A DNA stretch of 20,000 bases, taken from IMG/VR virus record IMGVR_UViG_3300041964_000150; one strand, 5' to 3'. How positions within the stretch are numbered: the first letter of the stretch is position 1; each line of letters begins with the position of its first letter. A model generated the notes under the pieces. It had not been told where the DNA came from. It ran no database searches and saw only the letters and a program-made list of their open reading frames with translations. This stretch comes from an uncultured virus (IMG/VR IMGVR_UViG_3300041964_000150) (Duplodnaviria > Heunggongvirae > Uroviricota > Caudoviricetes). Below, piece after piece: positions 3,855-18,075 of the stretch. The position numbers and the translations under genes were made by a program.

Positions 3855-4934
3855 TTACACTACGTCGATATTTCCGATCGAGCCAACCACCTGCCAGATT
3901 GTACTCGCAGCGATACACAGCAGATCAACACAGTCGCGGCTATGCGTTGAATCCAACCTCCCCCCTGTACCTGCGGTACTGGAAACATCGCCAAATACAA
4001 TCTGCTGGCCTGCATTCTGGGCAATCCGCCAGCCGCCTGCACCCTGACCAACAACACGGATCACGGTGTCTACTACTGCGGTGGTAGGTAAGGTGAGCGT
4101 TACCAGTGCGGCATTATTGGCGCGATAGCCATTGTTGGGAGCGATCGCCTGAGTGGTGCCCGTCACTGCGGTAAACGGCAACGGCACAAAAGGTATTGCT
4201 TGCCAGCTTTGATCGCCGCGCAGAAAGGTGCCACTGTTGGCCGTGCCGCTGCCTAATCGGGCAGTGGCGATCGTGCCCGAAACGATATCAGCAGCGGTGA
4301 TCGTCGTGTCGCCAATGCTGATCCAGTTCGCATCTGTTGTTGCGGGCAGCGTCGATAAAATGTAGCTCAAGCCGTTATCGGTCTGCTTGGCAACGTCACC
4401 CACCTGTACATTAGACAGCGCTAGACGCGCTGCCTGATCTGCGACCACTTGAATGCTAGTGAGCGCAATTGCGGGAATAACCGAAACCGCAAGCTGTCCA
4501 TTGCTGTCCAGTACAGGCACGTTTCCGGCTGCCGTGCCCGTGCTGGCCGTTGCCGCTGTGCCCAATCCCAACAGCGATCGCCCTGTTGTGGCGTCCAGCT
4601 CCTCAATTAGTCCAGCTCCGCTGCTGTTGCGTCCGAGCAATCGCCCTGACGCCGAAACGTTTTGGATTTTGGCGTAGGAAACCGCATTCGCGGCGATCGT
4701 GGGATTGGGGTAGGTTCCCGTCAGGTCGCCGCCTGCGTTGCCAGTCGGGGGAACACCTGTCACCCAGGCAGGTATGCCGCCGCTAATCCCCAAAATGCTG
4801 CCAGCGATGCCGATTTGTAGACGCGCTAGAAAGCCGTTGCTGTCTCGATAGTAAAGGTCGCCAGTTGCATCACTGCCGATCAGCGTTTCGATCGAGCCGC
4901 GCAACTGGTTGTTGAAGGCGTTTGCAATTACCAC
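3855..4934 (-). CDS. Tail fibre protein
   Basis: G/A/T/S-rich with fibre-type motifs (AGGDLTGTYPNPTI, LGLGTAAT..TGTAAGNVPVLDSNG, RLGSGTANSGTFLRGD). Likely GTG start at 4934 overlapping the upstream stop. Confidence 0.8.
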   Translation of the reverse strand: MVIANAFNNQLRGSIETLIGSDATGDLYYRDSNGFLARLQIGIAGSILGISGGIPAWVTGVPPTGNAGGDLTGTYPNPTIAANAVSYAKIQNVSASGRLLGRNSSGAGLIEELDATTGRSLLGLGTAATASTGTAAGNVPVLDSNGQLAVSVIPAIALTSIQVVADQAARLALSNVQVGDVAKQTDNGLSYILSTLPATTDANWISIGDTTITAADIVSGTIATARLGSGTANSGTFLRGDQSWQAIPFVPLPFTAVTGTTQAIAPNNGYRANNAALVTLTLPTTAVVDTVIRVVGQGAGGWRIAQNAGQQIVFGDVSSTAGTGGRLDSTHSRDCVDLLCIAASTIWQVVGSIGNIDVV

Positions 4935-5458
4935 AGGTCTAAGTGTCCGTAAATAGTAGTGGCACACCAGCGCTCAGCGCTCAGCGCCACGATTTCAACT
5001 TGTGCGCTCGGTTCGATCGAGTCGATGCGGCCAGTGATGCCGACTGACGTTGCCACGTTTCCGGCCTGAACCTGCTGATCGGCGTTCTGCGTGATTCGCC
5101 AACCACCTGCGCCCTGACCAATTAACCGAATGCGATCGCCAATTGCAGGGTTGATCGGCAGATTCAGCAGCAGCAGGATCGGGGAATCGAGAACGTAAGC
5201 GTGATTACTCTGCATCTGATGAGATGCGCTCAACGTCTGCCAGGTAAAGCTTGTACTGCTATCCTGTCCGTTGCGCCCTGGTGGTCCCTGGATGCCAACT
5301 TGCAGCGTTTGTATGGGCTGCGGCTCGACATCAACTTGCAGCAGTTGTGGGGTCGTTAGAAGCTGTACGGTCTGGGGGTCAACTTCAACCGTTGCCGACT
5401 GCTGTACAACCTGAATTTGAGTAATCTGCGGCTGAACAACAATGATCGGATCAGGCAT
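4928..5458 (-). CDS. Tail fibre/baseplate-associated protein
   Basis: 176 aa. V/Q-rich N-terminus, short collagen-like GIQGPPGRNG, and a C-terminal domain paralogous to that of the next gene (GQGAGGWRIxQNA). Confidence 0.7.
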   Translation of the reverse strand: MPDPIIVVQPQITQIQVVQQSATVEVDPQTVQLLTTPQLLQVDVEPQPIQTLQVGIQGPPGRNGQDSSTSFTWQTLSASHQMQSNHAYVLDSPILLLLNLPINPAIGDRIRLIGQGAGGWRITQNADQQVQAGNVATSVGITGRIDSIEPSAQVEIVALSAERWCATTIYGHLDLW

Positions 5459-6531: not shown

Positions 6532-7866
6532 TTAGAGCGAGAGCATCAAGCAGGCTTTGCGGTAGTCGGTGATCTTCGCGCCCATCAGCAGCGAAGCGAC
6601 ACGCGACTCGCGGAAGCGAGTTACATCGAAGCTACCCGACCAAACTTGCAGCGCTACGTTTGTCCCTTCTTGTACCTGGGTGACGGCTGTTGCACCGCTG
6701 CCTTCGCTCGGTGGCTCCATCATGCGGGTTGAGTAAACCAGCGCTTCACGATGGTGTGCGATCGAGATCGAGGGAATCATCGGAATCGAGAACTTATCAA
6801 CAGCCGGATTGATTTGAGCCGCAACAAGCTGCTGACCCTTCATCGAGAACGGCACAATGTAGACGGTCTTGGTCGCCAGATTGACGCGCAAAACAATACC
6901 GTAAGCCTTGGCGTTTCCTGCGGTCGGACCAATGCGAGCAATGTCACCGACTGCAACGTTTTGCAGTGCGCCTGTCGTTCCCAGAGTCAGGACGATCGCG
7001 CCCAGTGAGGTGCGATTAGCGAAATCGCCTGCAACAAAGAAGGATTGACCACCGTTAGCCGTGTCTGAAACTGCGCTAGCGATATCAACAGCAGGTTGAT
7101 TAGAAGCCGCGCCATCCAGATCGGTGCTGCCAACCTGCGATCCAATGGTGTTCGAGCCGCCGACCATGAAGCCGTAGCGAGGGAGGAACTGACCGATCGG
7201 CAAGCCTTGCTGTAGCAGCGTCGAACCACTGGCAATTGCTTCGAGGTAGCCAGCATCGACCGGGGTTGCTTCACCCAGAAAATCGCCCTTCGCTGTCGAG
7301 CTGATTTCAGCAAAGCGATTACCAGCGGGGACGTTTTCGCGATCGAGTACCGTACCTGCATGAATCAATGCGCTGCGATCGAATGAGGAGAGTTCACCGC
7401 TGCCGTTTTCGTTGGCAACACAGGCGATCGGTGCGTTGGAGCTGAAGGCAACTTCACCCGTCGAACTGTGGGTTGCGGTGCGGAATTTGTTGTACAGGTG
7501 CCCGTCGAACTTCGTCGCGATGCTCTGTGCGATCTGATCTGAGAAGTCCCGAACGTAGGTTGAGATTTTGAAGTCGCTGCTGAAAAGTGGGAAGCCGTTC
7601 GCCAGCAGTTTCTCTAGGGTGAGGTTGCCGCTGAGGTAGCCTGGTTGCGTCAAGTTCAGACCCGATCCAGTGCGGGGGTCATACTCTTGAGCTTCCGAGA
7701 TTTTCGGGCGCCGGAATTTAACAGTATCGCCAACTTCAAAACTGCCCTTTTCGTAGTCGCCCATGCTAGAGCGAGGAAACAAGGACATTAGATTGAGCTG
7801 AGTGAGTGACCGCATGGCGATCAACTCTTCAGGGATTAATGCTGCGGGTGCAAAGGTAACGGTCAT
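6532..7866 (-). CDS. Major capsid protein, P22 coat (gp5)-like
   Basis: Likely start MTVTFAP at 7866. Motifs GDTVKFRRP, IAQSIATKFD, A..VLDRENVP..NRF, R.GF.V..SN and SIAHHREALVYSTR recall P22-coat family capsids. Lies downstream of the scaffold and has its own terminator. Confidence 0.8.
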   Translation of the reverse strand: MTVTFAPAALIPEELIAMRSLTQLNLMSLFPRSSMGDYEKGSFEVGDTVKFRRPKISEAQEYDPRTGSGLNLTQPGYLSGNLTLEKLLANGFPLFSSDFKISTYVRDFSDQIAQSIATKFDGHLYNKFRTATHSSTGEVAFSSNAPIACVANENGSGELSSFDRSALIHAGTVLDRENVPAGNRFAEISSTAKGDFLGEATPVDAGYLEAIASGSTLLQQGLPIGQFLPRYGFMVGGSNTIGSQVGSTDLDGAASNQPAVDIASAVSDTANGGQSFFVAGDFANRTSLGAIVLTLGTTGALQNVAVGDIARIGPTAGNAKAYGIVLRVNLATKTVYIVPFSMKGQQLVAAQINPAVDKFSIPMIPSISIAHHREALVYSTRMMEPPSEGSGATAVTQVQEGTNVALQVWSGSFDVTRFRESRVASLLMGAKITDYRKACLMLSL

Positions 7867-7946
7867 GAGGGATGTCCATAGGTATCGGTTTGTAGTGCGT
7901 TCCGCTGGGGACATCCCTTTTAAGGCAAGGGCAGCCTTTCTCTGCT

Positions 7947-9622: not shown

Positions 9623-11146
9623 ATGACTAATAATTTGCGTGGTGGTATTTTCCCCGATAAAATCTTTAACCTGCTAACTCAGGAGTTTGCAACCTGGGAA
9701 GAAGCGATCGCCGCTTCAGGTCACGACAGCGTTCGAGTTAGCTGGGCAATCCTGCCGCCTGTACCGATGGGTAGGCTCAACCCTGCATCTGCATACCCAG
9801 TTCGAGTAGCAACGCCGCAGAAACACTCAGCCGTTGTTGTGTTCAATGGCGAGTGTTATTACTGGCAACCGACCGCTGAGCGCGATCGCGAGGTGTTGGC
9901 GCAACTGGTAGCAGAGAAATTAGCCGAACGCGATCGCCTGATTCGATCGAGAAATGCAGTCCATCGCAGCATTAATGTTCTGACGGCGATAAGAGGTGAT
10001 GAGTCATGGATCGAGCCTGAGCAGTGCAATCTTCACAACTTCCAGCAGGCTTATGCCGCAATGAGTGACGATGCTTTGATCGCCGCAGCCGAGCGCGATC
10101 AACTGGCGCGGCTCTCAGCAACTCCCCCAGTGCTGTTGATTGCGGGGAGAGCAGCATTCGCATCTCACTGGAAGCGGCTACATCCCGAAGTTGCCCGACA
10201 CTGCCGCTATGTTTCAGATCCAAACCAGCTTCGCGGCCTGCGGCGTGATGCGATTCTTATCAGAATGAATCTGCACGAACAGAATCCGCTTTATCAATCT
10301 GGGTTACTCCATCGGTTTATGCCGATCGAGCAGTCCCCGATCGTTGAATACGATGAGCGCATTCCGGCTGTTGAAGCATGGCTCACCAACATCCTGCGAC
10401 AGCAACAGCCAGCACACGATCGCCGCATTACTCAACGGGAATGGAGGCACGATCGCCCTGCTGAGGTTACTTTTGCTTGGTGGGATGAGGCCGAAACTGA
10501 TGTAATGCGCCCTTCTCCAGAACAGCTCGAAGCGTCTTTAGAAGAACTCGATCGACTGTGCAGCAGTACGATCGCGCTTATAGTAGACGGTCGAAGGACA
10601 CCAGAGGGTCAAGCCTTGAACAACTTGACGCACCACCTGCGCACGTTTGGAGATCCACAAACCGCAGAATTTGCGATCGCCCTGCATGAGAAGTTTCGCA
10701 AAATCCAGATCATGACGCCTGCCGAATATCGGCAAATTAAGTGTGAAGCCTTTGCTGAGATGGAAGAATTAGCGGCAGAGATATCTGAGTTATCACCTGA
10801 GAGTGCGCGAGCTTCGCTGCCATCGCCAGGGCGAATGGTTCGATCGCAGGTTGTTGATCCGCCTGGGCTGACGATCGAGAATGCGGTCACCTCATATCTG
10901 CCTGAGTTCTGCCGCCGCTACAAGCCGTCGATCTGCTGCAAGGCCGCTTATGTGTTTATGCGACTTGAGTATGATTGCTATTTCACCTGCGGCGATTTCC
11001 ATGCAGTTCACTACCTGCGTGAGAGCGAATTAGAGGCCGCACGTTCTAGGGGCGCACTGCTCTGGCACCTGATTGAGGTAGTCGAGCAGGCAGCACAACA
11101 GCTCGCCTCAATGCAGAATCCGCAGTCAGGGAATACTGAGGGCTAA
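9623..11146 (+). CDS. Hypothetical protein
   Basis: 507-aa open frame filling the gap before the portal. No motif recognised. Confidence 0.65.
   Translation: MTNNLRGGIFPDKIFNLLTQEFATWEEAIAASGHDSVRVSWAILPPVPMGRLNPASAYPVRVATPQKHSAVVVFNGECYYWQPTAERDREVLAQLVAEKLAERDRLIRSRNAVHRSINVLTAIRGDESWIEPEQCNLHNFQQAYAAMSDDALIAAAERDQLARLSATPPVLLIAGRAAFASHWKRLHPEVARHCRYVSDPNQLRGLRRDAILIRMNLHEQNPLYQSGLLHRFMPIEQSPIVEYDERIPAVEAWLTNILRQQQPAHDRRITQREWRHDRPAEVTFAWWDEAETDVMRPSPEQLEASLEELDRLCSSTIALIVDGRRTPEGQALNNLTHHLRTFGDPQTAEFAIALHEKFRKIQIMTPAEYRQIKCEAFAEMEELAAEISELSPESARASLPSPGRMVRSQVVDPPGLTIENAVTSYLPEFCRRYKPSICCKAAYVFMRLEYDCYFTCGDFHAVHYLRESELEAARSRGALLWHLIEVVEQAAQQLASMQNPQSGNTEG
11129..11140 (+). promoter_or_regulatory. 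GGGMAnnCTRR box upstream of portal
   Basis: GGGAATACTGAG, 25 nt before ATG 11166. Confidence 0.5.
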
Positions 11147-11165: not shown

Positions 11166-12725
11166 ATGCCTACGCTCGCTCAGTTACGCAGACGCCATCC
11201 TGAACACAAAGCCGACTTAGATCACTGGCAGTTATTGACCTCGATCGTTCAGGGTGGCCGCAGTATGGACGAGGCGGCCAAGCAAAAGCTGCTGCCCAAT
11301 CCAGACGGGCGACCGATGGAGGTTGTAAAAGAGCGGGTAAAGCTGGCGACCTATACCAATAAAATTGGTCCGATCCTCACCCGCTTCAACTCGCAGCTAT
11401 TCTCGCAGCCGCCGACCTTTAGCGGTTCAGACAAGCCATTTTGGGAAGTGTTTCGCAACGGTGGGGCGCTGCTGGACGACGACGACGACGCTCGCGCTAG
11501 CTTCAACACGCTGCTGAGCCGCGCCATGTTCGCCGCCCTGACCACAGGTAAAGCGATCGCCCAGATTGACACACGCATCGCATCAGGGGAAGCCAAATCG
11601 CTCGAAGAACAATCTGAAAACGGTGAGCTAGAGCCGTATGTAATCCTGCACCCCCGATCGGCGTTGTGGGATTGGAAGTCAGCCAGCAAGGGGTTTCAGT
11701 TTGCCAAGCTGCACGCTTGGCGAGTAGTTCAGGATACTTGGGACGCTGAACCAGTGGGTGAGCATGACTTCACGATTTTTCAGCGGCAGGCTGACGGTAC
11801 GATCATTGCTAGTCGCTACACGGTGCGCAAACGTCCGCGCCCAGGTGAAAAGCCGCCCGAAAATCCCTATTTCAGCCTCGATGACTGCAAGGATGAGGAT
11901 GTTGAAATTCTGCCGTTCAAGCTGGAAAACGGCACCACCTTGGAGAATCAGCAGATCTTTAGCGTCGGTGGGAAATTTGAGTTTCCGATCGTCTCACTGA
12001 CGTTGCCGCCAAGCCTCTGCATTGCCGATCAGTTATTCGAGTGCCAGAAAAGCTTTTTCAGCCAAACGGCTGCCCTTGAATATGCGATGTTCTGCAATAA
12101 CTACGCGATGCTGGTCGTGCTAGGGGTCGAGGACGAAGACGATGATCCGCTGCGTCGCAAAAAAGTAGGCGAAGGCTTCTACTTGACGCTGAAGCCTGGG
12201 CAGAGTTTGACCAGTTTCGAGCGCAGCGGCACCACGATCACAACGGCAATCAACTATCGCGCCGAAATCAAGCGCGACATTTACGATCAGCTCCAACAAA
12301 TTGCTATGTCTGCCGCTGATGGTGCGGCCATCATTGCGCGATCGGGCGAGTCGAAGCGGGAAGATCGTAGACCCGAACAGCTCTTGCTGTCTGAGTTTGG
12401 GCGATTGACAAAAGAATTTGCCGTTCAGATTTTGCGCTGTGCGGCGATCGCGCACGGTGAAGATGCGACCTGGAAAGCTGAAGGTTTAGACGACTTTATG
12501 GGCGAAGGCATTCTTGAAGAGATTGCCGACATTCAAGGCTTGCAACTACTGCCCATGCCCTCGCCCACATTCAAGCGAGAGACAATGAAATACCTTGCCC
12601 AGCGAGCCGCTAAGCGCTTCAGCTTCGCAAGTGACAAGACGACGACGATCCTCAAAGAATTGGACTCAGCCGCAGATGAAGAGTTTGAGCCGCCTGCACC
12701 AATGCCTGAGCCTGCTGCGGCTTAG
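11166..12725 (+). CDS. Portal protein
   Basis: 519 aa. N-terminal HPEH...W......GG, RVKLATYTN, ALTTGKAIAQID and SGESKRED motifs resemble SPP1-like/DUF4055-type portals. Acidic Pro-rich tail. Confidence 0.75.
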   Translation: MPTLAQLRRRHPEHKADLDHWQLLTSIVQGGRSMDEAAKQKLLPNPDGRPMEVVKERVKLATYTNKIGPILTRFNSQLFSQPPTFSGSDKPFWEVFRNGGALLDDDDDARASFNTLLSRAMFAALTTGKAIAQIDTRIASGEAKSLEEQSENGELEPYVILHPRSALWDWKSASKGFQFAKLHAWRVVQDTWDAEPVGEHDFTIFQRQADGTIIASRYTVRKRPRPGEKPPENPYFSLDDCKDEDVEILPFKLENGTTLENQQIFSVGGKFEFPIVSLTLPPSLCIADQLFECQKSFFSQTAALEYAMFCNNYAMLVVLGVEDEDDDPLRRKKVGEGFYLTLKPGQSLTSFERSGTTITTAINYRAEIKRDIYDQLQQIAMSAADGAAIIARSGESKREDRRPEQLLLSEFGRLTKEFAVQILRCAAIAHGEDATWKAEGLDDFMGEGILEEIADIQGLQLLPMPSPTFKRETMKYLAQRAAKRFSFASDKTTTILKELDSAADEEFEPPAPMPEPAAA

Positions 12726-12919: not shown

Positions 12920-15579
12920 CTGTCGTCAATCAAAACCCCCAGCGTCAGCCGATTGAACCGCACACCGGGGACGGGTGGAGGTAGGTCCGGCGCCTGAATG
13001 GGTGGGGTTGCCTTCGTGGTCAGGCTATCGGCCTTGCGGCGACTGTGCAGCGTCACCGGAATTGTCCGATCGATGCCTGCTGTAATCTGCGTCGGTGCGC
13101 CTGTCACCAAGGGATAGCCGTCGATCATGCCCTCGAAGTTGTATTGATGCGCGATCGAGATAACGCGCGTCTTGATGCGTTGCGACTCGCAGCGGATGCG
13201 CAGGCGATCGAGCGGGCGAATGCGAGCGTTTGGCGGCACTGCAAACGAGTATTGGATCGACTGCTGAATGTCGCGAATCTTCAGGTCAGCTTTGGCCGCA
13301 GCAAGTGCCTGTTTAGACGAATAGCACTCATAGCTGACGCTGCCATTGATCGCGTCAGTCGCTTGTAGCCTGGGGTGCAGATGGTGAATTCAAGGTTACG
13401 GTCTTTGTCGCGATCGTCGTTATCTGCGTCGTCCGGTTCTGGTTCCTGCCGCTCTAGTGCAGGAGGTAAGCGCGTTGCAGGTGACGGGCGATCGTCGTGT
13501 TCAGTGAACGACTCATGCACCGGCTTTTTCTTTGAATCCGGCGCCCTGCGCTGAGTCTTCAATGTGCCACTCAACGAACCGATCGATTTCCTCCTCAGCG
13601 TTGTTAGTGAAGGTGAAGGGGATGCCATCAGATTTAGTGATCGTTTGCTTTGAAGGAACGATCGTGAGATAGGTATGCACCTTCGATTCTTCGCCAGTAG
13701 TGAACGGGCACAATCGCCCTTCAGGGCTGCTCGGATCGTCGTCAGGGTTGGCGATTGAAGCGAAAGAATTCTTGTAGGTGAACTCTTCGATCACAAACAT
13801 TGCAGGCGCATAGGTCGGGTCTTTCACCCAAGCCAAGCCAGAGGTGCCGTCATTGTTGCAGACCTTATAGCTGATCATCGCCTCGGATTCGTCCACATCG
13901 TTGTAGACGTTAGAAAAAGCTTCTAATGTGACGCGCGATCGTTCTCGCAGGGGCAGCTTTTGGAACTGGTAGAGCGCGAGGTAAGGGGCAGATTCGGGCG
14001 AGCCGTCACCATAGGCGATCGTTTCCAGTGCTTCGGACTCCTGTTTAAACCGTCTCATGCTCCATCCGGTTGTATCAAACCCCATTGCATAGCCGTAGAC
14101 AGGCTCATAGAGGTAGGTCACAACCTTGTAGGAAACCAGTCGCCAGAAGCCTGCCGGATTGCCTTTCAGCTCGCCGTCTGCATTCGCGATTTCCTTGGCC
14201 GTATAGCAAAATCCATAAATCAGCTCCTCATCCGTGAACGGCATCCCGTCTTCAGTCGTGCTGATTTTGAGCGTTTTCGTCGGACCGGACGCATCCCAAT
14301 TGAGATCCAGCGTCTTCAGCCAATCGGTCTGAGCGGGCATCTCTGCGGCATCGTCATCGCCCGATCGCAGCGTCCTGCGCACGCGAGGGCGCGGCACCCA
14401 TAGCGGCTTATCTGGTGAGTTGGGACGGTTCCAGCGTCTACCGCTGAGGCTCGCTCGCGGCGTCTGGTAGCTCAATCGAGCGTTAGTGTATTCGACCGCA
14501 TAACCTCGATAGTCCGGGCTGTTGCGGGCATCGCCCTGATAGGTGGTCTGCAAGTCGCGCACGCGATATCGCCAAATTGCCCCACGCTCGATCGATCGGG
14601 CAATCACCGCATCAAACTGGCTGTAATCAATCCAACAGTTGTTGATGCGCGAGCGAGCATTCGCCAGCTCACCCCAACTCACGGTTGCATCGAGCGGAGT
14701 ATCAGCAGGAACGTTCACACCCCAAAAGTCACCCTCGCAGCGGAACGGCACGCCGACCCGTGCGGCGATCGTTGCCACTGTGAGCCGTCCAGTCGTTGAT
14801 CCGGCTGTCGGGGAGTTGCCGTTACTGCAATCAGGGTCAGGCTCGATCGGTGAAATGCTGCTGCCGCTGCTGCTGCCCGATCGCAGCTTCACAGGTTGCT
14901 GGTAGCGAGTCGCCGCCCAGCGACCCGTGAGCGAAACGGCAACCAGATACAGACCTTCATCCGCCTTAAAAGTTGTGGTTAGGCTCGATACACTCCAGCC
15001 GCGATCGAATAACTCCAGTTCGGTGCCGTTGGCAAACCGCTGCTCAACACTGGCGATCGTCTCAGCCGTGCAGACCAGATTGAGTGAGCCAGAGGGCTGC
15101 TGCTCTAGTGATTCGCTCCACCGGATCTGCCCAAGCACGGGCAAGCCTGCCAGCGGTGCCAACACGCGCCCATCAATCAGGTTGGTGGGGATACGCTCGC
15201 TGCCGCCGATCGCCACGATCGGCAAGTCAGTAGAAACTGCAAGCGCACTGGCAATCGCGATCGTGCCGTCTGCATTTTCCACAAACTCGCTTGCCTGTGG
15301 ATTGTCGGGGTCATCAGCGAGCGTATAGGTTTGGCCTGCATGAACGATCGCATCGACCTGGGTAAGCGTCGGTGTGATGGTGGTTTGGCCGTTGCTGATG
15401 GTGGCCGCTGTCACCGTTGCGATCGCAGGTTCGAGCGGAATCGTCACATCGAGCGCTCGCGCCGATGCGCCCATATCGAGGTCAGCGATCGGGGTGGCCG
15501 CAGGTGCAGGTAGCAGGGCGATCGCACCTGCGGCAGGATGTTCTAGGGGCAGCGCGTTGGCTGGGGCAAGTCTCCACAT
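12895..15579 (-). pseudogene. Large tail/baseplate structural protein (~890 aa), interrupted by two compensating indels
   Basis: ORF 13513-15654 (likely start MWRLAP at 15579, 4 nt after the conserved box) ends ...GAGFKEKA. It continues in another frame VHESFTEHDDRPSPATR...ICTPGY, then returns to the original frame ATDAINGSVSYECY...SFAVPPNARIRP to the 12895 stop. Indels at about 13520 and 13362. Confidence 0.6.
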
Positions 15580-15583
15580 AATC

Positions 15584-15595
15584 CCTAGAATGCCC
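15584..15595 (-). promoter_or_regulatory. GGGMAnnCTRR box upstream of large tail gene
   Basis: GGGCATTCTAGG, 4 nt before ATG 15579. Confidence 0.55.
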
Positions 15596-15678
15596 AGGCG
15601 CCGAAGTTGATTTGATTGCGGCTGATCAGCGGCGAGCAACATTATGACAGGCAAGACAAGATCATCCGTGTCATCCCA

Positions 15679-15871
15679 CGATCGCCGCTTTCACTGTCTA
15701 CTGGACTATTCCAGTCGTCCACTAGACACCAGATTCAGATTTGTGTTTAAGCGCTCAAGGGGCGAATTTTTCACGGGTTGATGTTCGTTCCTCTGCCCGT
15801 GTCGATTTGCGTTTAAGTAAGCGATCGCCCCTTTCGCTGTCTACTAGACAATTCCAGTCGTCCACTAGATC
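15679..15871. repeat. Two direct copies of a 48-bp unit containing a 34-bp imperfect palindrome
   Basis: 15679-15726 vs 15822-15869, 44/48 identical. Core TGTCTACTGGAC-TATTCCAGTC-GTCCACTAGACA at 15695-15728. Confidence 0.9.
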
Positions 15872-15923
15872 GCGAAGTGGTGAAGCAGGGGCAACCGTCC
15901 CTACAGCTTAATTCAGCGATCGC

Positions 15924-16084
15924 TGTGCAGTGACAAATTAACTGTCATCATCAGTGACAGATTGATGTCGCTGGCGACAAATTAAATGTCATCGGTGACA
16001 GATTGATGTCGCTGGTGACAAATTAAGTGTCATCGGTGGCCTGTGCAGTGACAGATTAATGTCGTCGGTGACAGATTAATGTCG
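15924..16084 (+). repeat. Array of seven TnsB-binding-site-like repeats with two TGTGCAG termini (type V-K CAST end-like)
   Basis: YGACA-N6/7-TGTCR units at 15931, 15955, 15975, 15996, 16016, 16049 and 16069. TGTGCAG at 15924 and 16042. The repeat structure is directly visible; the likeness to the ShCAST end is from recall. Confidence 0.85.
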
Positions 16085-16086
16085 CT

Positions 16087-16174
16087 GGGCGATCTTATTT
16101 TTGCCAGCGACAATATGACGCCAGATCGCAACTCTTATTATCGATTCGAGCCAATTTCTGAAATAAGACTGCCC
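16087..16174. repeat. TCTTATT-core repeats: an inverted pair plus an internal copy
   Basis: GGGCGATCTTATTT (16087-16100), GCAACTCTTATTA (16128-16140) and inverted AAATAAGACTGCCC (16161-16174, 12/14 match to the first). Confidence 0.6.
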
Positions 16175-16182
16175 CTAGAACA

Positions 16183-17670
16183 TCAAGCCGCAATGCCCTT
16201 GATCGCTCGATCGTGCCGCAGTGTGCTGGCAACTTTCTTGTAGGGATAAAGCGTGTGCATCAGGTAGCCTGCTGCATCGCTGGGGTGGGTCCGCATTGAA
16301 TCGGATTTGTCGATCGCAACCTTGTCTTTGTCGAATGCCACCATTTCCCAATCTTTCACCAGCTCAGGGCAGCCAGCTAGATCGACATAAACGCGATTGT
16401 TTCTAAACAGACAATTGCAGGAATTGACGCGACTGAGAACGGGTGGATTCGCTTTCGGAATGTGCCGATGCAGGTTGCCTACTTCCACTGTGAAGCCGAT
16501 CGATCGGAACGCATCAAACACCAAATCCCAGTTTGTGATCCGAGAGACAGCGGTGCGAGCGTGGCCTGAAGCGTCACCATAGAGGTGAATTTCTGCTTGA
16601 TGGTCTGCCGCTGCAATCCAATCACAGAGGTCTGTTGCGAGTTCATGCGTGTCGCTATCGCAGATGTAGAACTCCTTGAAAAAGTGAATTTCATCGCCGC
16701 GCCGTTGGGATAGAACGCAGACCGCTGGCGAGTAGTTGAAGTCGAAGCCGATATGCAGATCGAGCAGTGGATCGTAGTCCAGCAGGGCAGAATCTTCGCC
16801 TTGCAGCGCGTGCGTAGGGCGATCGAAATATTTGTAGGTTCTGCCTACAACTGTGTTGATAAACGCGCCTTCGAGTTCCTGCGCGGCGAGTTCATCAGTG
16901 TAGTTCGCTTCGAGCGATCGCACGTAATCCTCACCCAGTCCGGCGATATTCTCACGGGTAGAGCAGGAATACATGACATAGAGCAGCTTGCGATCGTCTG
17001 CCCGCAGCGGATCAGCAAAGCGGTCATAGAGCCAGTTAAAGCCGTTGGGTGAGGTTGTCAGCATCCCTTGCCCTTTCATCGTGCCGGGTCCACGACCTAA
17101 CCGCCCGTCGAGCGTTTGAAAGGCTTGCTCTGAGGCATACGCCGCTTCATCGATCCAGGTCCAGCGAATTTGTAAGCCGCGAGCTGCCTGCGTGTTGCCC
17201 ATGAAGGAGTTGAGCGATAGCACATAGACGAAGGCACGCTCAGAGCCGATGTAGCAGCGCTGACGGTTGGCGATCGCGAGTGCGGTATCTTCGACGCTGG
17301 CCGCGCTCGGTTCTAAGGGGATGTTGAACTGCCGACAAACCTCAACCAGCGTCATGAGCGAGGCTCGCGAGAGCTGGCCGAAACTGTTGGCCGCAATCAA
17401 GCCGCGCGACTTTGGATCGAGCAATGCTCGCGAAATTGCCCAAGCTGCACCACAGTAAGACTTGCCGCTGCCAATGCCGCCAATCAGGGCACTAAATCGG
17501 CAATCATCTGGCTCGATCGAGGTTAGCGGGAAGCGCTCGAAGAAGCGGGCTTGTCCGCCTGGGTTCGGCTTGAACTCTTCCAGCAGCGTCGGACCGCGAT
17601 CGCCTAACTCAAACTCGATCGCCGCTCTAACTCGATATTCGTCCTGTAGTAGTCCGCCCCAGAATCCCAT
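16183..17670 (-). CDS. terL: Terminase large subunit
   Basis: Walker A GGIGSGKS, Walker B WTWIDEAA, motif III LTTSPNG, RNase H-like nuclease acidic motifs (IGFDFN, YGDASG, THPSDAAGY). Confidence 0.95.
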   Translation of the reverse strand: MGFWGGLLQDEYRVRAAIEFELGDRGPTLLEEFKPNPGGQARFFERFPLTSIEPDDCRFSALIGGIGSGKSYCGAAWAISRALLDPKSRGLIAANSFGQLSRASLMTLVEVCRQFNIPLEPSAASVEDTALAIANRQRCYIGSERAFVYVLSLNSFMGNTQAARGLQIRWTWIDEAAYASEQAFQTLDGRLGRGPGTMKGQGMLTTSPNGFNWLYDRFADPLRADDRKLLYVMYSCSTRENIAGLGEDYVRSLEANYTDELAAQELEGAFINTVVGRTYKYFDRPTHALQGEDSALLDYDPLLDLHIGFDFNYSPAVCVLSQRRGDEIHFFKEFYICDSDTHELATDLCDWIAAADHQAEIHLYGDASGHARTAVSRITNWDLVFDAFRSIGFTVEVGNLHRHIPKANPPVLSRVNSCNCLFRNNRVYVDLAGCPELVKDWEMVAFDKDKVAIDKSDSMRTHPSDAAGYLMHTLYPYKKVASTLRHDRAIKGIAA

Positions 17671-17690
17671 AATCGCAGTGTGTCACTCTG

Positions 17691-17702
17691 GCTAGAGTGC
17701 CC
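17691..17702 (-). promoter_or_regulatory. GGGMAnnCTRR box upstream of terL
   Basis: GGGCACTCTAGC, 20 nt before ATG 17670. Confidence 0.55.
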
Positions 17703-17739
17703 AATGTTCTAGGGGCAGGGGCGATCGAACCTTCAAAAT

Positions 17740-17805
17740 ATTATCCAGAAAATTGTTGACATATCCACAAATATATGGATAATAGAAGTATCAACTTAGT
17801 GGAGG
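17740..17805 (+). promoter_or_regulatory. Sigma70-type promoter with overlapping operator-like palindrome and RBS
   Basis: TTGACA 17756-17761, 16-nt spacer, GATAAT 17778-17783. TATCCA-N8-TGGATA at 17762-17781 plus an extra TATCCA at 17742. GGAGG at 17801-17805. Confidence 0.7.
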
Positions 17806-17814
17806 TCAAATTCG

Positions 17815-18075
17815 ATGAAATTCTACTTATTCCAGCGTTATCGATTAGATAGCAATGGCAGGTCAAATTTTGGCAGCGGATCTTTTGTTGCTCCCGGTGG
17901 TTCACCAGAAGAAGCTCAGCAGCGTGTTGAGAAGCTGCATAGTCCTAGTTATAGTCAGTGGCGATTTAAGCTGCTGAGTTCAGCAGAAATTGAGACAGGC
18001 GATCAGCTTTCAATACAACTTCAGGTTCGCCAAGTCTTGCAACCAACCTGTTCCGATAGTGAGCTTGTATGGTGA
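17815..18075 (+). CDS. Hypothetical protein
   Basis: 86 aa, strong GGAGG RBS, first gene after the promoter. Confidence 0.7.
   Translation: MKFYLFQRYRLDSNGRSNFGSGSFVAPGGSPEEAQQRVEKLHSPSYSQWRFKLLSSAEIETGDQLSIQLQVRQVLQPTCSDSELVW

Follow-up and report, generated by a model that had tools for sequence, protein, structure and literature searches.

CRISPR-associated transposons (CASTs) of type V-K are thought to reach mobile DNA via CRISPR arrays and by an untargeted pathway. Their ends are described as carrying alternating long and short repeats, with termini that read tgtacagtgac... (PMC9527255). Attachment is described at tRNA sites, with truncated repeat-spacer guides (17-nt) and a GTN PAM (bioRxiv 10.1101/2021.02.06.429022), and insertion takes place 60-66 bp from the PAM (PMC9798831). 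ShCAST also inserts independently of a guide, at AT-rich sites (PMC10370016). V-K CASTs have no TnsA and are reviewed as transposing replicatively (PMC11406308). Degraded copies are common, and tnsBCQ genes lie nearby for only 152 of 282 cas12k genes in the survey of Hsieh and Peters (bioRxiv 10.1101/2021.02.06.429022).

The locus described here has the form of such an end but lies in a phage. The window, a 20-kb stretch read from a 72,526-nt contig, has seven near-palindromic sites and two TGTGCAG termini of the same orientation at 15924-16088. The pattern YGACA-N6/7-TGTCR matches exactly seven times on the plus strand of the whole window, at 15931, 15955, 15975, 15996, 16016, 16049 and 16069, giving site-to-site spacings of 24, 20, 21, 20, 33 and 20 nt. 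The same seven sites are also read on the minus strand because they are near-palindromes. Chance would give a mean of 0.38 matches and a maximum of 4, both strands together (500 first-order Markov resamples of the window). The terminus TGTGCAGTGACA is exact at 15924 and 16042, on the plus strand both times, and no minus-strand copy was found in the window with up to two mismatches allowed. A 41-nt two-site unit is duplicated, 15948-15988 being 93% identical to 15989-16029. With position weight matrices made from the ends in cyanobacterial genomes, the seven sites reach 24.5-31.3 bits, and shuffled sequence gives a mean of 0.2 matrix hits. Apart from the seven sites, only one match in the 20-kb window, on either strand, exceeds 10 bits: the first site read in reverse.

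The array opens with terminus 1 (TGTGCAG, 15924-15930, plus strand), which is one base off the TGTACAG of the listed cyanobacterial ends. It runs into site A1, a long-type repeat with an N7 spacer that resembles a TnsB site (15930-15950, plus strand, 30.3 bits), followed by B1, a short-type repeat with an N6 spacer (15954-15973, plus strand, 24.5 bits). The long-type A2 (15974-15994, 26.5 bits), short-type B2 (15995-16014, 24.5 bits) and long-type A3 (16015-16035, 31.3 bits), all on the plus strand, make up segments that are absent from a variant allele described below. Six bases separate A3 from terminus 2 (TGTGCAG, 16042-16048, plus strand), which has the orientation of terminus 1 and occurs only in the window-type allele. 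The short-type sites B3 (16048-16067, 29.0 bits) and B4 (16068-16087, 25.7 bits) follow on the same strand. A possible degenerate, spaced fifth site (GCCAG + CGACA..., 16098-16121, plus strand) is weak, seen by eye and below 10 bits; it weakly resembles, again by eye, the spaced last site of the genuine ends L179 and L180. A scan of 16089-16182 for a degenerate right end gave nothing above 10 bits.

The layout agrees with V-K ends in that TGTNCAG is directly followed by TGACA...TGTC repeats, long (N7) and short (N6) in alternation, with 20-21-nt spacing. At both 15924 and 16042 the terminus stands directly before a repeat (TGTGCAG + TGACA..., with A->G at position 4), and the array has seven putative TnsB repeats of long and short types, where a V-K end calls for three or more, about 20-21 nt apart. 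The TGTGCAG terminus, in place of TGTACAG, sets it apart from the listed V-K ends, as do the location in a phage and the second direct terminus of one allele. A promoter scan found 0 promoter-like sites. Two of four terminator-like hairpins from a terminator scan are the palindromic array sites themselves, and Rfam gave 0 matches on 15300-16500 at E up to 1. A role as pac site, as iterons or as operators for phage proteins was considered and rejected, since the terminus with its long/short repeat grammar is that of a CAST end and the array is absent from the relatives of the phage.

Sequences like the array are found at CAST ends in many cyanobacterial genomes. The 17-mer TGTRCAGTGACARATTA occurs in at least 121 stretches when one genome is taken per prokaryotic species, and the majority of matches among the 80 record titles listed are cyanobacterial. 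The non-cyanobacterial matches among those listed lack sites behind the 17-mer. As a literal string, TGTRCAGTGACARATTA was not found in the literature searched. The array used as a DNA query matched all five chosen genomes and 25 of 401 genomes sampled across cyanobacteria. Its top matches, at 75% identity over 113 nt (G210) and 88% over 48 nt (G008), are to ends near cas12k and tRNA genes. Several matching ends adjoin transposition genes: Cas12k (NF038191, E 3.8e-265) at L020, a Cas12k fragment at L061, a TnsB-like protein (Mu-transpos_C + rve) with TniB/TnsC at L070 and L051, and a TnsA-TnsB fusion with TniB and two TniQ at L011. Among the five best-matching genomes that were checked, three (G210, G160 and G005) have an intact cas12k, situated 0.7-1.1 kb inward of the matching end. 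In the other two, Cas12k remains only as a 160-aa fragment (G008:C77) or as cas12k fragments elsewhere in the genome (G214).

The matched cyanobacterial loci (n=42) carry the terminus in 27 cases and a tRNA gene ending 4-45 nt outside it in 18. The motif CTTTCAAY, complement of the 3' end of the CRISPR repeat, lies within 400 nt inside the terminus in 12 of the 42, at distances of 133-368 nt. At L179, 17 nt beside a CRISPR-like repeat match the adjoining tRNA in reverse complement, and the terminus lies 60 nt past a GGTT of that tRNA. The repeat grammar, termini, tRNA sites, 17-nt guide and GTN PAM at these cyanobacterial ends match the published V-K descriptions. Together with the matches to ends that adjoin cas12k, tnsB/tnsC and tRNA sites, these features identify the array, by its sequence, as homologous to that end of type V-K CASTs which is proximal to the attachment site and lies on the Cas12k side, called 'LE' in the ShCAST papers.

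The array lies between two phage genes. On one side is the T4-type large terminase gene terL (16183-17670, minus strand, 495 aa; Terminase_6N, E 2e-18), whose stop codon is 95 nt from the last array site. The downstream neighbour of the array on the minus strand is a 713-aa phage gene (13513-15654, minus strand, phrog_15468). The spacer from the terL stop (16183) to the first possible start of the 713-aa ORF (15654) is 528 nt long, and neither gene is interrupted. Genes for a portal-like protein (11166-12725), a major head protein (6532-7914) and a tail-fibre-like protein (3855-4967) are also present. Just upstream of the portal gene lies an ORF of 507 aa (9623-11146, plus strand) for which Pfam, PHROGs and NCBIfam gave no match and the related phage G001 no homologue.

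The spacer and its borders contain two further repeats. A 24-nt inverted repeat (15529-15552 and 16169-16192, 92% complementary), judged far beyond chance length, brackets the whole spacer between terL and the 713-aa gene. Its arms, one across the terL stop and one about 100 nt inside the 713-aa ORF, could pair on a shared minus-strand transcript, looping out 616 nt that include the array. A 48-nt direct repeat lies to the left of the array (15679-15726 and 15822-15869, 92% identity, 143 nt apart), and its 17-nt core TCCAGTCGTCCACTAGA has only these two copies in the window. The second copy ends 55 nt short of the first terminus, and the match to a metagenome contig of run X4 stops near 15840, within this repeat.

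That the phage is a cyanophage is indicated by its sequence and by its terminase. The HIP1 motif GCGATCGC is found 32 times in the 20 kb, where chance would give 0.3. One of these copies directly precedes the first terminus (15916-15923), and just past the last site stands a GCGATC (16089-16094). Named TerL homologues are found in assemblies of Tolypothrix, Dolichospermum, Symploca and Leptolyngbyaceae, and a 48%-identical homologue sits on a 6.75-Mb Leptolyngbyaceae contig, which implies an integrated copy. Against cultured phages, tblastn with TerL found nothing above 28.3% identity and blastn with 13500-17700 found no match; blastn of the array against plasmids also gave no match. The HIP1 excess, the cyanobacterial TerL homologues, the integrated copy and the lack of a close cultured terminase place the phage in an uncultured, HIP1-rich cyanophage lineage, at least some members of which are temperate.

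Within the 20-kb window the array is an orphan end. No inverted partner end was found in the 20 kb of the 72.5-kb contig. Transposase, TniB, TniQ and Cas12k families were not found among the window ORFs scanned (26 ORFs against Pfam, 24 against PHROGs and 15 against NCBIfam), so tnsB, tnsC, tniQ and cas12k are missing from that set. The window contains 0 tRNA genes by ARAGORN, and no tRNA remnant was found to the left of the termini by ARAGORN or by eye. In the interior direction, the nearest CTTTCAAY-like match is at 18007 with one mismatch, which is chance level; the array therefore has neither an RNA-gene attachment site outside nor a truncated repeat-spacer guide or CRISPR repeat inside, unlike V-K CASTs. 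The preliminary description of this DNA, made from the letters alone, had reported seven sites, two termini of one orientation and a duplicated 41-nt unit, and the motif count, the exact search and the 93% identity bear this out. Matrices, the terminus search and Pfam/PHROGs/NCBIfam likewise agree with its statement that the window has no partner end and no tns or cas12k genes, and the position of the array between 15654 and 16183 with its statement that the flanking genes are uninterrupted. The likeness to a V-K CAST end that it had noted is upheld by the genomic homologues and sharpened to the Cas12k-side, attachment-proximal end, and phage genes, HIP1 and TerL homologues support its placement of the array in cyanophage DNA.

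Other incomplete CAST ends resemble the array in part. Degraded V-K remnants in chromosomes (G214 and G008:C77) also retain an end when the transposition genes are gone. Unlike the array, such remnants stay at the tRNA attachment site and usually keep cas12k, a CRISPR array or a guide, whereas the window retains about 165-200 bp of end, in phage DNA. One of them (L179, G214:C1:6261149-6261250) is a complete-looking attachment-side end beside tRNA-Val, with five sites and a tRNA-complementary guide; as cas12k survives in that genome only as short fragments at other places, L179 is an orphan end within a host chromosome. Nostoc genomes contain MITE-like CAST-end derivatives with inverted TGTACAGTGACAAATTA termini (L038 8001-8201, 201 bp; L123 301-484, 184 bp). 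They share with the array a terminus type that bounds non-autonomous DNA. Unlike these elements, the window has two direct termini and none inverted, and no pair of inverted termini within a few hundred bp was found at the array. Among the Nostoc loci listed, ends of the type TGTACAGTGACAAATTAAATGGCG... are very common. By title and abstract start, no relevant paper on Cas12k and MITEs was found in the literature searched.

L002 (G409), a plasmid-like contig from IMG/VR, is a second case of an orphan, tandemly repeated end. At 4700-5230 it has about 2.5 tandem units of 178 bp followed by 22-nt iterons, on a 72-kb contig without a Cas12k or Mu-transposase match. As in the window, the end copies are tandem and of the same orientation, and each unit consists of TGTACAG and four sites. 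Unlike the window, L002 is AT-rich and has its unit of about 178 bp beside TrfA-like and ParA genes and the iterons, and it is unrelated to the window phage.

The relatives of the phage do not carry the array. A terminase profile search, unlike single-protein IMG/VR searches with TerL and the 713-aa protein, which found no relatives, yielded 11 metagenome and 24 IMG/VR loci with TerL 26-67% identical (n=35). The nearest TerL, at 79% identity (P0002, on a 74.8-kb contig), falls outside this 35-locus comparison. The array motif is present in 0 of the 35 related loci, and the 713-aa gene lies within 6 kb of terL in 0 of the 35. A matrix scan of 399,348 bases from relatives, including the whole 72,295-nt G001, gave only nine isolated hits of 12.1-15.6 bits and no cluster. 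In G001 the homologue of the 713-aa gene is about 30 kb from terL, which places the array at a point of differing gene order. The left flank (15655-15923) has no homologue in the relatives and is thus not proven to be original phage DNA. Several terminases of the lineage (P0011, P0014, P0016, P0035, P0039, P0042, P0051 and P0061) are 600-850 aa long and contain the intein splicing domain PF14890; the window terminase has no intein domain.

CAST-type ends are almost absent from IMG/VR as a whole. The first 17-mer gave four hits, one of which is a true end (L002), and among 2.9 million contigs of IMG/VR the two-site pattern and a TGACTA-type terminus each gave 0 hits. The conservation across related phages that would point to selection is not seen in the 35 loci; within the phage's own population the array is kept.

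That population can be followed in biocrust metagenomes. Runs from several studies match 14500-17500, none of them an RNA run, and Logan contigs of four runs were aligned on 13500-18000. Phage depth in these contigs is 3-9 in the flanks and 18-47 over 15916-16066, and loose contig ends over the array read ...TGTACAGT. The rise in depth and the loose ends indicate that CAST ends of other organisms in the same communities pile up on the array.

Contigs of low depth nevertheless bridge the unique phage flanks and the array. In X1 (study P1), a 252-nt contig of depth 4 spans 15861-16115 in the window form save for a 3-nt gap at 15945. A second X1 contig, of depth 4.4, has three flank differences (15891, 15893 and 15895), runs to 15950, continues with 20 other letters that make one short-type site, and resumes at 16048. 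X4 (study P3) has a 522-nt contig of depth 3.1 with the same structure, reaching 16335 within terL, and X2 (study P1) has a 418-nt contig that runs from 15569, within the 713-aa ORF, into the array and is compatible with the four-site structure. The depths of the two X1 alleles (4 + 4.4) sum to about the flank depth. With such contigs from two studies, the junction of array and phage DNA is real on both sides and no assembly artefact.

Two haplotypes therefore exist. In one of them a lone terminus is followed by four sites at even spacing (long, short, short, short), whereas the window haplotype has seven sites and two termini and is 74-77 nt longer, with three extra sites and the second terminus. 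The four-site allele occurs in two studies, is the more widely seen and is a plain canonical end. X1 is possibly the window's own source and so lends little independent support to the seven-site form. The two haplotypes diverge at 3-5 of 20 positions in the middle site and by about 2% in the flanks. The indel is bounded by similar site starts (GYGACARATTA), and repeat-mediated deletion or duplication can explain it. A three-site allele (joint 15948 to 16046) was rejected as a separate form: the simplest account is that the contigs, which end 38-39 nt past the joint, carry the four-site allele and were aligned with a shift of one repeat.

The array is probably an orphan V-K end left by a CAST insertion into a phage or prophage, the rest of the element having been lost. 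A V-K CAST or a non-autonomous derivative would have transposed into phage or prophage DNA, and all but the first 165-200 bp or so of one end would then have been lost, since an element of 10-30 kb would hardly be tolerated in a 72-kb packaged genome. Later repeat-mediated rearrangement may have given the allele with one terminus and four sites and the one with two termini and seven sites. Had the element struck a prophage or replicating phage DNA and then lost everything except one end, a precise joint of terminus and target would remain and nothing else. We infer this insertion and deletion, and a cognate TnsB may still bind. A point against a mere relic is that all seven sites score like genuine ones and that both natural haplotypes keep the array, which would fit either recent arrival or selection. 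Neither a partner end nor a target-site duplication nor an empty-site allele was found, so the insertion event is deduced rather than demonstrated. The 5 nt before the two termini differ (ATCGC before terminus 1, TGGCC before terminus 2), with no partner end for comparison. GTC at 15857-15859 and 15860-15862 would place a GTN PAM 64 or 61 nt before the terminus, within the 60-66 given in PMC9798831, and was discarded as evidence for guide-directed insertion, as by our own estimate GT falls there by chance about one time in three.

A route without transposition, in which host DNA bearing a degraded CAST end was captured by recombination at a recombination-prone phage junction, is possible but rather unlikely. 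The different gene order in G001 at the position of the array would suit such a junction, and the array is bracketed by the very frequent HIP1 sequence and GCGATC. Orphan ends that could serve as a source do exist in host genomes, as in G214 (an end with its attachment guide, cas12k fragments being elsewhere) and G008:C77. Genomic ends, however, carry a tRNA outside and a guide or CRISPR repeat inside, neither of which is present at the array. In addition, the foreign segment begins exactly at the terminus, as a transposition joint does, and random capture is unlikely to give such a border.

Slightly less likely again is that selection keeps the array as an anti-CAST device, in which a TnsB-binding array, expanded in one allele, would guard the phage genome through target immunity in cis or through titration of TnsB. 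Tn7 and Mu offer a parallel in that their ends make nearby DNA a poor target. TnsC disassembly driven by V-K TnsB, along with target immunity, is described in PMC9798831, and V-K systems apparently have target immunity according to PMC11406308. The array would resemble these cases as a set of transposase sites on DNA. It differs from usual target immunity, which belongs to a resident complete element, in being an end alone, in a phage and known here from sequence only. The intact sites with their high matrix scores, retention in two haplotypes and two studies, the allele with more sites and the tandem orphan array of L002 would all suit a selected device. Absence from all 35 related loci speaks against a general strategy, as do the 0 hits of two further end patterns in IMG/VR, and the more widespread allele is a plain single end. 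Immunity in cis is a plausible by-product if the cognate TnsB binds: in Tn7, Mu and V-K systems TnsB or its counterpart removes an AAA+ target selector, and fewer insertions near the array would be expected. A neutral scar would give the same effect, so immunity alone would not prove selection.

The preliminary description had favoured a version of this idea, proposing capture and amplification of end sequence by the phage, to serve as a decoy or TnsB sponge. None of the tests supports this proposal, given the lack of the array in relatives and the near absence of CAST-type ends from IMG/VR. The amplification that it saw is present as the second terminus and the duplication, but only as one of at least two natural alleles, the commoner of which is plain. 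Retention of the array at terL in related phages, which it had put forward as a check, is seen in 0 of 35 loci. The decayed CAST remnant that it named as an alternative fits best.

An improbable alternative is that the array bounds a larger element that can still move, carrying terL and the genes to its right as cargo and having its inverted partner beyond the window. The 20 kb read of the 72.5-kb contig leaves room for a partner end or tns genes elsewhere on it, and the interior of the end faces terL. Against this, the terminus has phage structural genes to either side, with terL on the inside and portal, capsid and tail fibre on the outside, no partner is present within 4 kb on the interior side or elsewhere in the window, and tns/cas genes were not found in the window. 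Threading of abundant CAST ends from other metagenome organisms into the phage contig during assembly, to which the excess depth and loose ends over the array would point, is hardly credible in view of the low-depth bridging contigs (3.1-4.4) in X1, X2 and X4 from two studies and the X1 allele depths that add up to about that of the flanks.

As the probable trace of a CAST insertion, an orphan yet intact end in a wild cyanophage is field evidence of encounters between V-K transposons and phages. The literature searched gave no link between cyanophages and CRISPR-associated transposons, and its titles and abstract starts no natural phage-borne TnsB decoy. Whether a lone end suffices for V-K target immunity is called unexamined in a 2024 review (PMC11406308), and the natural four- and seven-site alleles could be used to probe this point. 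If the array is a scar only, it makes a small addition to the catalogue of degraded CASTs. If it does act as a shield in cis, host TnsB bound to the array would strip TnsC off the 72-kb phage DNA, leaving it immune to RNA-guided or untargeted CAST insertion, and expansion from four to seven sites would tune the shield. This would be a viral counter-measure against a CRISPR-guided transposon, made solely of the transposon's own DNA sites.
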